Source: Candidatus Zestomicrobium tamdykulense (lineage in GTDB: Archaea > Thermoproteota > Thermoprotei_A > Sulfolobales > NBVN01). Taken from it: DNA of 62,047 nucleotides. Numbering within the stretch: the stretch's first letter is position 1; every line of letters starts with the position of its first letter. The stretch spans positions 1-62,047 of the forward strand of contig JAVVFV010000006.1 in NCBI GenBank assembly GCA_039889305.1. Reading direction: 5' to 3'. The translations under genes and the position numbers were made by a program. The notes under the pieces were generated by a model. It was not told the origin of the DNA. It saw only the letters and a program-made list of their open reading frames with translations, and made no database searches. Positions 5,334 through 59,290 of this stretch are shown piece after piece.

Positions 5334-5396
5334 TAATCAGAGTGAACTGCGGTCTTCATCCCCGACAGAGTCTTAGGCTGCCCACCTCATCATCTA
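5334..5396 (-). ncRNA. box C/D guide sRNA
   Basis: Minus strand reads ATGATGA (C, 5393-5387), GGTGGGCAGC, CTAA (D'), a small GAC-TCT-GTC hairpin, ATGAAGA (C'), CCGCAGTTCACT, CTGA (D, 5340-5337). Confidence 0.8.
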
Positions 5397-5419
5397 TGAA
5401 ATATAGTTTCTGAGCCTAT

Positions 5420-5603
5420 TAAGTGGTCACCGGCTTCCCCCTCAAGACACACTCACTGTTCGTGGGTTCATTGGGGGCTCCATCGGCGGGCACCACAGGG
5501 ACCGCCTTGTGGGTGTTTCTACGGGGCGCTATGAATAGTGCCCCGCCTCTGATGGTTATACAGTCATTGAGGCGGGAGTATAGGGTTAGGGTGACTACAC
5601 CAC
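5420..5603 (-). ncRNA. unidentified structured ncRNA with K-turn (possibly IS200/IS605 omegaRNA-like or H/ACA-like)
   Basis: GC-rich island in an AT-rich intergenic region; TATA about 25 nt upstream; 5' GTCACC pairs with 3' GGTGAC; three hairpins plus a CCCCC-AAT-GA...GA-GGGGG kink-turn. Confidence 0.6.
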
Positions 5604-5618
5604 TAATACCTAAAAAGC

Positions 5619-5640
5619 CAAAAAGCTTAAAAGCTTTTAC
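5619..5640. promoter_or_regulatory. near-palindromic bidirectional BRE/TATA element
   Basis: AAAAGCTTAAAAGCTTTTA reads as purine-rich BRE plus TATA on both strands; lies between the ncRNA (minus) and dppD (plus). Confidence 0.5.
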
Positions 5641-5670
5641 TTAGCATACAGTCTCACACTAAAATTTAAA

Positions 5671-6672
5671 TTGGTTGCTGTGAGTTTTTCTAGGTGTGTA
5701 ATGGTGAGTTCCTCGAGAACTGTGCTGGAAGTTAATAATCTGAAGGTTTATTACCGTACTCTAGCAGGTATAGTGAGAGCTGTTGATGACGTATCTTTAA
5801 GCGTTAATGAGAGTGAGGTTCTAGGTTTAGCTGGTGAGTCTGGGTGTGGTAAGTCTACCTTAGGTTACGCTTTGCTCAGGTTAGTTCCCCCGCCAGGCAG
5901 GATTGAGGATGGCAGGGTAGTTATTGATGGTATAGAGATAACCAAACTTAGTGAGAGTGATTTGAGGAAGGTTAGGTGGAATAAGGTCAGCATGATATTC
6001 CAGAGTGCTATGAATATCCTAAACCCAGTATATACTGTTGAGAAACAATTAACAGAAGTTCTCACAGTACATAGGGGCATGAGTACGGAAGCAGCTACTA
6101 AGGTAGTTGCTGATGCACTTAGGCAGGTAGGTTTAAACCCTGAAATAATGAAGAGGTACCCACACGAGTTGAGTGGTGGCATGAAGCAGAGAGTCGTTAT
6201 AGCGATGGCTCTACTACTCAAGCCTAAGTTAGTCATAGCTGATGAACCCACCACAGCTTTAGATGTTGTTATTCAGGCACAGATAATGAACCTACTAAAG
6301 AAAATCAAGCTAGAAGAAAAAACCTCAATGATTTTCATAAGTCACGATCTCAGCCTAATAGCTGAGATCTCGGACAGGATAGCGATTATGTACGCAGGCA
6401 AAATAGTTGAGGCAGGACCTTCAGAAGAAATATTCAGCAATCCTCAACACCCCTATACGCAGGGACTACTGAAGAGCATACCGCGTTTAAGATCTAAAGA
6501 AAAAATAACGTGGATTCCGGGAGTTCCCCCAGATCTTAGGAGGCCTCCACTAGGTTGTAGGTTTAACCCTAGATGCCCGTACGTGATGGATGTGTGTAGG
6601 CGTGAAGAACCCCCAATGATAAGATTAGGCGAGAATCACTACGTTTCTTGCTGGCTACATGCGAAGAGTTAA
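5671..6672 (+). CDS. dppD: dipeptide/oligopeptide ABC transporter ATPase (DppD/OppD)
   Basis: GESGCGKS, YPHELSGGMKQR, ADEPTTALD, and C-terminal GCRFNPRCP; start probably at ATG 5701. Confidence 0.93.
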   Translation: MVAVSFSRCVMVSSSRTVLEVNNLKVYYRTLAGIVRAVDDVSLSVNESEVLGLAGESGCGKSTLGYALLRLVPPPGRIEDGRVVIDGIEITKLSESDLRKVRWNKVSMIFQSAMNILNPVYTVEKQLTEVLTVHRGMSTEAATKVVADALRQVGLNPEIMKRYPHELSGGMKQRVVIAMALLLKPKLVIADEPTTALDVVIQAQIMNLLKKIKLEEKTSMIFISHDLSLIAEISDRIAIMYAGKIVEAGPSEEIFSNPQHPYTQGLLKSIPRLRSKEKITWIPGVPPDLRRPPLGCRFNPRCPYVMDVCRREEPPMIRLGENHYVSCWLHAKS

Positions 6673-58831: not shown

Positions 58832-58921
58832 TGGTAGCCGGGCGGGGATTCGAACCCCGGTCACGGGGGCACTCCCCAGAGGACCAGAGCCCCGCATCCT
58901 TGGCCACTAGACGACCCGGCT
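58832..58921 (-). tRNA. tRNA-Gln(CUG) with 14-nt intron at 37/38 (58870-58883)
   Basis: AGCCGGG...CCCGGCT-A-CCA; CTCTGG|TCCTCTGGGGAGTG|CCCCCG forms a BHB (CUCU/GGAG helix). Confidence 0.95.
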
Positions 58922-58928
58922 ACTCAGG

Positions 58929-59018
58929 TGCCGCCGCGGGGATTCGAACCCCGGACCTCCGGATATCCCCAGGATTGGCCGTATGAGTCCGGCGCTCTAC
59001 CCGCTAAGCTACGGCGGC
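58929..59018 (-). tRNA. elongator tRNA-Met(CAU) with 17-nt intron at 37/38 (58965-58981)
   Basis: GCCGCCG...CGGCGGC-A; CCGGA-CTCATA|CGGCCAATCCTGGGGAT|A-TCCGG; relaxed BHL motif. Confidence 0.93.
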
Positions 59019-59166
59019 ACCAATAACTACTATAATAACCCACCTTAAAAATATTCTTGTGTACGTGCGGATTTACTTAATACTACAGTTCTATCTGCAA
59101 TAAAATAAGAGTACACGACTGTTCTGGTACACACAAACATTAACTTCTTTATTCTTTTGTAGAGGA

Positions 59167-59290
59167 GGCGGATCCCAGTTTGAGGGGGCTGCGAGGCCTC
59201 GCGGACCTCACTGCCCCCTCAACGCGGCCGGCTTAACTTCCGGGATCTGACGAGTCCGGGTGTTTCCCGACCGCTATGACCGGGACCGCC
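59167..59290 (-). rRNA. rrf: 5S rRNA (unlinked)
   Basis: GGTCATAGCGG...AAACACCCGG...CCGGAAGTTAAGCC...GCGAG; complementary ends; TATA (CTTAAAAA) upstream. Confidence 0.96.

Follow-up and report, generated by a model that had tools for sequence, protein, structure and literature searches.

A probable gene-less IS607-family derivative with an omegaRNA scaffold beside a C/D box sRNA gene of Candidatus Zestomicrobium tamdykulense

Does a structured, G+C-rich segment in front of a conserved small RNA (sRNA) gene represent an RNA gene of the host, a working guide RNA or the remains of a mobile element? The question is raised by a locus in a 62,047-nt stretch of Candidatus Zestomicrobium tamdykulense DNA (GCA_039889305.1, JAVVFV010000006.1, positions 1-62,047), which is called the window here and whose genome is labelled G000. 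The original prediction, made from the letters of the window, described an orphan RNA with its own promoter and a kink-turn (K-turn). It proposed either a domesticated omegaRNA that lacks tnpB and acts in trans, or a new class of L7Ae-binding non-coding RNA (ncRNA). The G+C content of the segment is 0.54-0.57 against 0.35-0.47 in its flanks. Homology, boundaries, insertion polymorphism and the conserved structure of the family RNA indicated that positions 5650-5423 of the minus strand are very probably a 228-nt gene-less, non-autonomous derivative of an IS607-family element, inserted at an AC dinucleotide in this species only and most likely a stranded relic. The element is read on the minus strand of the window throughout, and G, L and C numbers denote genomes, loci and contigs. 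The genus comparison comprised G000 and 9 other species (10 genomes), and 41 related genomes were searched more widely by DNA similarity and by covariance model.

Boundaries and parentage of the insertion

None of the 9 other species of the genus was found to possess the insert at this position, and only G000 carries extra sequence there. In these sister species the spacing between the ABC (ATP-binding cassette)-transporter gene and the sRNA gene is about 90-160 nt. G001 possesses an exact empty site, in which the matches of the two flanks meet at ...GAGATAC/TTAATAGG (a slash marks a junction). The junction in G001 reads ...GGTGAGATAC/TTAATAGGCTCAGAAACTATA... and the window reads ...AGTGTGAGAC/TGTATGC...(228 nt)...GGTGACCAC/TTAATAGGCTCAGAAACTATA.... 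Each junction carries AC and the empty site carries it a single time, with no duplication of the target, which fits a serine-recombinase transposon. Transposition of IS607 is described to leave the core dinucleotide at both ends without target-site duplication (10.1101/2023.11.20.567912). The insertion is restricted to the lineage of this species and is situated between the probable TATA of the ABC-transporter operon and that of the C/D sRNA.

To identify the parent family, the segment was searched as DNA in the 41 related genomes. Matches were observed in 6 of them, G000 included, where the self match stood alone; G015 accounted for 10 matches, several of which were situated at contig ends, and G039 for 2. 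A homologue in G039 overlaps the 3' end of an open reading frame (ORF) with the TnpB TNB domain (PF07282, 1.4e-14). The TnpB-tail frame is open in the window for 62 codons (ISGVV...IRGG...KPVTT, then two stop codons) and shows 27/53 identities with residues 383-431 of a TnpB of 444 amino acids (aa) (E = 1e-10). The tnpB remnant in the insert thus represents the last ~58 codons of the gene, and the same stretch forms the omegaRNA scaffold. The idea of a tnpB-less omegaRNA is borne out by this homology to the 3' end of a TnpB gene, both in DNA and in the open frame. The RNA is an orphan only insofar as it lacks an attached tnpB gene; its sequence is a transposon tail.

Scanning of public genome contigs with the G039 fragment identified 20 loci in metagenome-assembled genomes (MAGs) labelled Desulfurococcales, Thermoprotei and others. 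At 14 of the 20 loci the TnpB frame is 442-477 aa long, and a gene of ~207 aa precedes tnpB at 11 of those 14. PF07282 was found in the TnpB of L058. For the upstream gene only the L053 copy was scanned, which revealed Resolvase (4.6e-25) together with HTH_17 (5.1e-14). Because the gene before tnpB combines a helix-turn-helix with a Resolvase domain, as in a serine recombinase, the parent is IS607 and not IS200/IS605, to which the RNA had been linked. The ends are also homologous, as the left end (LE) aligns with the full-length elements L057 and L058 and the right-end region with 14 full-length elements. No tnpA and only ~58 tnpB codons are left in the insert, and it is therefore a derivative rather than an autonomous IS607 member.

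Apart from this, the TnpB N-terminus (..IKTIEKTIK..) in L055, L057, L058, L059, L060, L061 and L066 was observed upstream of the first in-frame ATG/GTG/TTG, where it abuts the tnpA stop; this suggests a non-standard tnpB start or coupling to tnpA translation. A G010 match to the left-end part (L009) was rejected as a transposon end, as it consists only of a similar promoter-like box before an unrelated G+C-rich stretch. The box of L009 (1500-1700, G010:C19) is near-identical to the left-end box of the window (GGTAAAAGCTTATAAGCTTTTTG), the stretch of ~170 nt behind it contains GATGATG and CTGA and may be another small RNA gene, and further TTATAAGTTTT-type boxes are situated downstream.

The insert is composed of a left end with a TATA-like promoter, the tnpB tail as omegaRNA scaffold and the right-end tip ACCAC (Table 1). 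The TATA-like CTTTTAAG noticed earlier at 5633-5626 was identified as the conserved, putative LE promoter box of the transposon. The block TAAA..TTTTTAAGC / TTTATGAGC is kept in 8 of 8 aligned left ends, and in full-length elements it precedes tnpA, as the putative tnpA promoter. The LE is fused directly to the start of the first scaffold helix (CTCCCGCCTC). The same junction with helix A, within a few nucleotides, was found in the C47 copy of G000 and in four copies of G015 that differ in their left-end variant, while the last ~24 nt of the LE (GGTGTAGTCACCCTAACCCTATAC) were found in the window copy alone. At the other end, relatives possess after GAAGCC a hairpin of ~55-65 nt (GCCCGTGC...GCACGGGC) followed by AACCAC. 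The window reads GAAGCCGGTGACCAC there, showing that the terminal hairpin is deleted and the tip kept.

All 23 aligned right ends finish in ACCAC and are followed by unrelated flanks. The scaffold thus spans the tnpB 3' end and the right end and stops at the boundary, and the flank takes the position of the guide. The predicted guide start proved exact, the element ending at ...GGTGACCAC and the guide position beginning at TTAATAGG. The left end starts as G/AC in 17 of 20 elements (9/11 full-length, 8/9 mini) when read by eye, and the transposon-associated motif (TAM) is predicted from these flanks to end in GAC. The occupied window site shows CCAC at the TAM position. In IS607 elements the donor joint is described to re-create TAM and target, with the core contained in the TAM (10.1101/2023.11.20.567912).

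Conserved structure of the family RNA

Residue pairing across the family was analyzed in two alignments. A1 contains 23 rows, was made by MAFFT and is independent of the structure; A3 contains 30 rows and was fitted to the model structure. RNAalifold on the MAFFT alignment of 23 sequences gave 23 pairs, 11 of them with compensatory changes. The fuller structure, which was used for counting, consists of helix A, helix C, the canonical stem (C-stem) and inner stem of the K-turn, terminal hairpin E and a candidate pseudoknot. In A1, 91.9% of its cells are paired against a shuffled mean of 85.2%, none of 500 shuffles reached this value, sliding the partners by 1-3 columns lowered it to 38-50%, and 17 of 45 pairs are compensatory. 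The corresponding values in A3 are 90.0% against 80.6%, 0/500 shuffles, 38-49% and 24/40, and they lean towards the model structure because the alignment was fitted to it. The omegaRNA structure is therefore supported by covariation. The stretch folded alone beats its shuffles only modestly (minimum free energy -63.3 kcal/mol, z = -1.83; 7/200 shuffles equal or better).

Among the individual helices, compensatory changes were found in 10 of 15 pairs of helix A and in 6 of 7 pairs of helix C, with 91.7% and 92.5% of cells paired, and the K-turn C-stem showed covariation in 2 of 5 pairs with 94.7% of cells paired (all A3). In hairpin E, 3/8 pairs covary. The hairpins proposed earlier fared differently. 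The first one, CCCGCCTC / GAGGCGGG, is present and supported by compensatory changes. The hairpin GGGGCACTA / TAGCGCCCC (hairpin B) is also present; it falls outside the RNAalifold consensus and is variable in the family. The sequences of the terminal stem, GTCACC (5595-5590) and GGTGAC (5431-5426), exist in the window, and the stem is not conserved: its 5' arm lies in the junction segment particular to this copy and its 3' arm is a remnant of the deleted hairpin E. The CCACA/TGTGG hairpin can likewise be written in the window and is not conserved, since CCACA is part of a 12-nt insertion that no sequence other than L070 and the two alignable G000 copies was seen to possess. The pairing GGCGG/CCGCC, taken for an H-type pseudoknot, does covary as helix C, in which it forms a plain helix. 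An alternative pseudoknot is possible between GUGGU (5496-5492) and the tip ACCAC (5427-5423). This pairing has 97.3% of cells paired in A1, two of its five pairs are invariant and the other three depart by unpaired cells only, so that covariation speaks neither for nor against it.

A second design of mini-element was observed in L078 (G002:C15:17731-17925), L084 (G002:C2), and L079 and L083 (G026). These copies possess a long left end like that of full-length elements, the tnpA TATA included. Their 5' hairpin resembles a circular permutation of helix A (GCYAUCAGG-loop-CCGAUGACGGC) and is followed by helix C, the K-turn module and the terminal hairpin as usual.

The K-turn proposed for the window, CCCCC-AAT-GA (5477-5468) with GA-GGGGG (5443-5437), is present with its C-stem, three-nucleotide bulge and tandem G.A/A.G pairs (CCCCC-AAU-GA ... 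GA-GGGGG in the RNA), the C-stem being supported by the alignments. Of the 30 family members, 27 show the pattern of a 5-bp C-stem, 3-nt bulge, GA, inner hairpin (5467-5444, minus strand, in the window) and (G/A)A, with GA on the non-bulged strand in 23 and AA in 4. The inner stem covaries, CCACC/GGUGG against CCCGC/GCGGG, and its register differs among subgroups. Most members have it shifted by one nucleotide on the 3' strand relative to the G.A pairs, and in a common register 74.7% of cells are paired. Covariance-model realignment left this value and the difference in register unchanged, and per-sequence folding was used instead. As the inner stem is offset by one nucleotide in most members, K-turn-like is the safe term for the module. 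The inner stem of the window is weak, with -3.0 kcal/mol against -5 to -11 in 15 of 16 tnpB-linked relatives (-3.1 in L066). With this and the loss of the terminal hairpin (helix 5 of the model), the window scaffold is not complete.

K-turn RNAs of this kind have been described to bind L7Ae. In the available text of PMC3124441, sRk52, sRkB and sRkC of Pyrococcus abyssi are intergenic RNAs with promoter and conserved structure that shift with L7Ae in gels, and their sequences coincide, in sense orientation, with the 3' ends of orphan OrfB genes of the IS607 or IS200/IS605 type. Similar L7Ae-bound, transposase-linked RNAs of Sulfolobus solfataricus are cited there. The proposal of a new L7Ae-binding class is thus not supported. 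In the literature searched on TnpB together with L7Ae or kink-turn, no test of L7Ae as a TnpB cofactor was found in the text available.

Table 1. Features of the insert and of its immediate flanks, in window coordinates (BRE, transcription factor B recognition element)
Feature	Coordinates	Strand	Basis or remark
Whole mini IS607-type element	5423..5652	-	AC core at 5652-5651 and 5424-5423; net insertion 228 nt (5650-5423)
Left end (LE)	5581..5650	-	aligns with LE of full-length L057, L058 and of G015 mini-elements
BRE/TATA-like putative promoter of LE (GTAAAAG CTTTTAAG)	5626..5640	-	predicted start near 5603
omegaRNA helix A (CTCCCGCCTC ... GAGGCGGGG, inner AUGA/UCAU stem)	5541..5578	-	covariation
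Hairpin B (GGGGCACTA / TAGCGCCCC)	5523..5544	-	present in sequence; overlaps helix A by 4 nt; variable in family
omegaRNA helix C (GGCGGTC ... GCCCGCC)	5485..5506	-	covariation
GUGGU in helix C loop, candidate pseudoknot partner of tip ACCAC (5427-5423)	5492..5496	-	pairing count
K-turn-like module	5437..5477	-	C-stem 5477-5473/5441-5437, bulge AAU 5472-5470, GA 5469-5468, GA 5443-5442
Left-over 5' arm of terminal hairpin (GCCGGTG) fused to tip ACCAC	5423..5434	-	alignment to relatives
Flank at omegaRNA guide position (TTAATAGGCTCAGAAACTAT)	5403..5422	-	follows tip; identical in G001 empty site; also holds probable C/D sRNA TATA
C/D box sRNA, host gene outside the element	5335..5397	-	kept in 10/10 genus genomes, 82-98% identity
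TTTAAATTTT, probable TATA of divergent ABC-transporter ATPase gene (5671-6672 +)	5661..5670	.	TATA role putative

Partners, other copies and competing explanations

The covariance model identified three copies in G000. It scored the window copy at 128.4 bits, the one at C47:23495-23719 at 127.3 bits and the one at C39:24661-24873 at 57.4 bits. The C47 copy (plus strand, L075 1501-1725) possesses a promoter-like box of its own and a degenerate terminal hairpin, and the C39 copy (plus strand, L076 1501-1713) is heavily decayed and A+T-enriched (G+C 0.37); both are without tnpB. The 12-nt insertion before helix C is common to the window and C47 copies, and C47 and C39 are near-identical there. 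As a probe of copy age the C47 copy was compared with G001, where the flanks align up to GTAGG/T and the sequence between them is unrelated.

Search of G000 (48 contigs, 93.95% complete) revealed no cognate TnpB. The Pfam model PF07282 gave only sub-threshold matches, of 24.6 bits with stops inside and of 20.4 bits; a 225-aa TnpB fragment matched the window tail only and the full 444-aa TnpB matched tails at C29 and C47 only; and a TnpA query gave no match. The sequence at the guide position was found in G000 as the exact self match and in two hits with 3 mismatches, as compared with 1 for the reversed control pattern. In the wider set the covariance model matched 13 of 41 genomes (E up to 0.001). 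Twenty-nine hits were examined in six genomes, G000 among them, and 22 had at least 1119 nt upstream. An intact tnpB was found upstream of none of these 22, with no more than 182 of the 444 TnpB residues matched there. Gene-less or broken copies are thus the rule in the six genomes examined. In L064 a second, partial hit to the omegaRNA model (5553-5666, minus strand, 88 bits), truncated where the analyzed sequence stops, is situated ~2.4 kb from a full-length element on the same MAG contig, showing that full-length elements and extra copies can co-occur.

A course of events in which promoter use, transcript ends, TAM and loss of function are the predicted parts would account for such an element. 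The left-end promoter would yield an RNA of ~200 nt, the 3' end of which would read into the flank and take up UUAAUAGGCUCAGAAA... as guide. In a cell with a full-length element, the TnpB of that element would load the RNA and cut the vacated site (predicted TAM ...GAC with guide match), and the mini-element would then be copied back by recombination, while the serine-recombinase TnpA would move it. Cutting of the vacated site by TnpB is described to retain the element in IS605 and IS607 (10.1101/2023.03.14.532601, 10.1101/2023.11.20.567912), and mini insertion sequences without genes are described to be excised by TnpA (10.1101/2023.11.20.567912). As neither tnpB nor tnpA was found in G000 and the two sister copies are decaying there, the window copy would most likely be a stranded relic, with an effect, if any is left, on transcription of the adjacent C/D sRNA.

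Several observations weigh against this reading. In relatives the loop of the terminal hairpin varies in length and is poorly conserved; the hairpin, which is deleted here, may be dispensable, and disordered loops of the bacterial IS607 right-end element RNA (reRNA) are described as removable without loss of activity (PMC11061315). The window copy is young or under some constraint and not visibly decayed, because helices A and C and the K-turn C-stem are well paired and G+C-rich and the TnpB-tail frame is still open. A tnpB or tnpA could sit in an assembly gap, the genome being 93.95% complete in 48 contigs, and insertion sequences are often left out of assemblies. The TAM is read from flanks alone, and the sole empty site, that of G001, has T and not G before AC (TAC). 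It also counts against the preferred reading that a full-length IS607 element could have been inserted here and have lost tnpA, most of tnpB and the terminal hairpin in place. In agreement with such decay the window copy shows two separate deletions relative to full-length elements, its 24-nt junction segment is found in no other copy, and it is single-copy in G000 by DNA similarity. The junction of the LE with the helix A start in the window, C47 and four G015 copies argues against it, as does the 12-nt insertion common to the two alignable G000 copies. Shared junction and shared insertion fit a family that spreads as mini-elements, and decay in place is considered unlikely, though a serious minority view.

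The functional explanations were weighed on the same evidence. An RNA of a new host class, for example an L7Ae-binding one, that only resembles a transposon would agree with the K-turn-like motif, the G+C-rich helices and the failure of Rfam to find any family at the locus. It is contradicted by the insertion polymorphism (9/9 sister species lack the stretch at the same site), by transposon ends that bound the stretch and have an empty-site counterpart, by homology to TnpB coding sequence and by the decay of the other G000 copies, and it can practically be discounted. Somewhat better placed, and still improbable, is a working trans-acting omegaRNA that would be taken up by a partner encoded elsewhere, either a TnpB or a nuclease-dead TnpB-like repressor; the partner could sit in the unassembled part of the genome, a plasmid or a virus, and the target could be the empty site or another one. 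A promoter-like box of its own stands before an almost complete scaffold that retains intact helices A and C, an intact K-turn C-stem and the candidate pseudoknot GUGGU/ACCAC, the assembly is incomplete, and gene-less palindrome-associated transposable elements (PATEs) often encode omegaRNAs that need TnpB in trans (10.1101/2023.03.14.532601). The lack of TnpB in G000 by the Pfam model and two protein queries speaks against it, as do the guide without a second target in G000, the deleted terminal hairpin and the weakened inner K-turn stem; the cognate TnpB fragment gave best matches of 26-37% identity in the 9 sister species, and these belong to other TnpB lineages. A fixed locus, a protein partner and a target elsewhere, as would mark a domesticated guide RNA, were not found, and the proposed domestication is not supported. 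The insertion could also have been exapted as promoter or leader, supplying or modulating C/D sRNA transcription through a longer precursor from the left-end promoter. The element is situated directly 5' of the probable sRNA TATA (TTAATAGG) in the same orientation, where it replaces the sequence upstream of that TATA, and no terminator was noticed between the two, although no search for one was made. However, the sRNA keeps its own TATA-like box with the spacing seen in the sisters (CTTAAATTAG about 22-25 nt upstream), which argues that it is independent of the element, and it is kept in 10 of 10 genomes, 9 of which are without the insert. Exaptation is accordingly held to be rather unlikely, if less remote than a trans-acting guide RNA.

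Known families were also searched at the locus. Rfam found no RNase P of type A or T, no signal recognition particle (SRP) RNA and no H/ACA RNA there, either at the gathering threshold or with E up to 10. RNase P and SRP RNA had been excluded earlier, and both are encoded elsewhere in the genome, at G000:C34 (202.3 bits) and G000:C2 (163.4 bits); the type-T RNase P model matched G000 only at the RNase P locus (31.1 bits). A plus-strand ORF antisense to the RNA (5423-5644, 73 aa) belongs to no Pfam family and was taken as a chance frame in G+C-rich DNA. Search of sequencing runs returned three DNA runs with 0.04-0.09 of the sampled words and no RNA run, which has no bearing on expression.

Relation to known systems and to neighbouring genes

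Both gene-less elements with an omegaRNA and L7Ae-binding RNAs from tnpB tails are known from earlier work, and the window element adds a member of that kind. According to the available text of PMC3124441, sRk48/sRk52 and sRkB/sRkC of P. abyssi are, like the window RNA, intergenic, G+C-rich, 130-220 nt long and present at repeated loci. They possess their own BRE/TATA about 22-24 nt before the mapped start and a covarying conserved structure, and on the sense strand they correspond to the 3' end of orphan OrfB (TnpB) genes from IS607 and IS200/IS605 elements. Their transcription is shown and their K-turn or K-loop binds L7Ae in gel shifts, whereas both would be putative for the window RNA. P. 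abyssi belongs to a different phylum and its RNAs probably to a different sequence family, although no homology comparison was made. The report predates the omegaRNA concept, and transposon ends and empty sites are undefined in the text available.

PATE-like IS200/IS605 elements resemble the window element in having both ends, no genes and an omegaRNA that needs TnpB in trans, and in being mobilised by a transposase encoded elsewhere; they are bacterial, with a Y1 transposase and palindromic ends (10.1101/2023.03.14.532601). In contrast, the window element has an IS607 parent with a serine recombinase, an AC core, no palindromic ends and a left-end promoter directly before the scaffold. CboIStron (10.1101/2023.11.20.567912) and ISFba1 (PMC11061315), as described in the parts available, resemble it in having the same core at both junctions without target-site duplication, a TAM (predicted for the window) that adjoins the left end and takes in the core, and a guide supplied by the flank beyond the right end. 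Their scaffolds contain pseudoknots, for which the window offers a candidate, and a mini insertion sequence without genes, the design of the window element, serves as excision substrate. The core is here AC after G (predicted TAM ...GAC), unlike the bacterial GG within TGGG or the TAM AGGAG, and the scaffold forms part of the tnpB coding tail, whereas theirs follows the gene. The K-turn-like module, the lack of an intron and the absence of both tnpA and tnpB also distinguish the window element from these two. An omegaRNA of Sulfolobus acidocaldarius comes from an archaeal tnpB, the 3' end of which shows processing sites and is covered by small RNAs, and this fits an omegaRNA that overlaps the gene tail; unlike the window RNA it is attached to an intact IS200/IS605 tnpB, and no link to L7Ae was found in the text available (PMC12817955).

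A bolder view is that gene-less parasites made of promoter and omegaRNA are the main form of this IS607 lineage in hyperthermophilic archaea, with a K-turn-like module that recruits L7Ae as a subunit of the TnpB ribonucleoprotein, and that the window copy is a still-competent minimal scaffold. Deletions would then have been selected that set the left-end promoter exactly before the first scaffold helix, and the mini-element would compete for TnpB from rare full-length copies. This view is speculative and is put forward as doubtful. On the preferred reading, in which the window copy is most likely a stranded relic, the locus removes a false lead, as the RNA is not a new class of host RNA. The pair of filled and empty sites defines where an archaeal IS607 lineage starts and stops with single-nucleotide precision (AC core, ACCAC tip), and the predicted TAM ...GAC is testable for a thermophilic TnpB family of about 442 aa. 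The covariation-backed omegaRNA model with its K-turn-like module ties L7Ae-binding 'transposase-related' archaeal sRNAs to omegaRNAs, and a copy that naturally lacks the terminal hairpin could serve as a model when scaffolds of thermostable genome-editing tools are trimmed.

The C/D-type sRNA that had been noticed about 25 nt downstream of the element is indeed present. Its boxes are C (GATGATGA), C'-like (GATGAAG) and D (CTGA), and it always adjoins the divergent ABC-transporter gene in the 10 genus genomes. Rfam gave weak matches only (sR2, 15.9 bits against a gathering score of 42). The ATPase gene of the transporter was assigned by Pfam, and the box on its side is kept as aatttaaat in 8 of 9 sister species, including G001-G004 and G007-G009. 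The element is followed directly by TTAATAGG as probable TATA of the sRNA, and the sister species possess CTTAAATTAG at a similar distance. This arrangement makes co-transcription of the element RNA with the C/D sRNA possible and leaves room for an effect of the insertion on sRNA transcription.

Elsewhere in the window, at 58835-59287 on the minus strand, a 5S rRNA gene adjoins two tRNA genes of 87 and 90 nt, the length of which may be due to introns or long variable arms.

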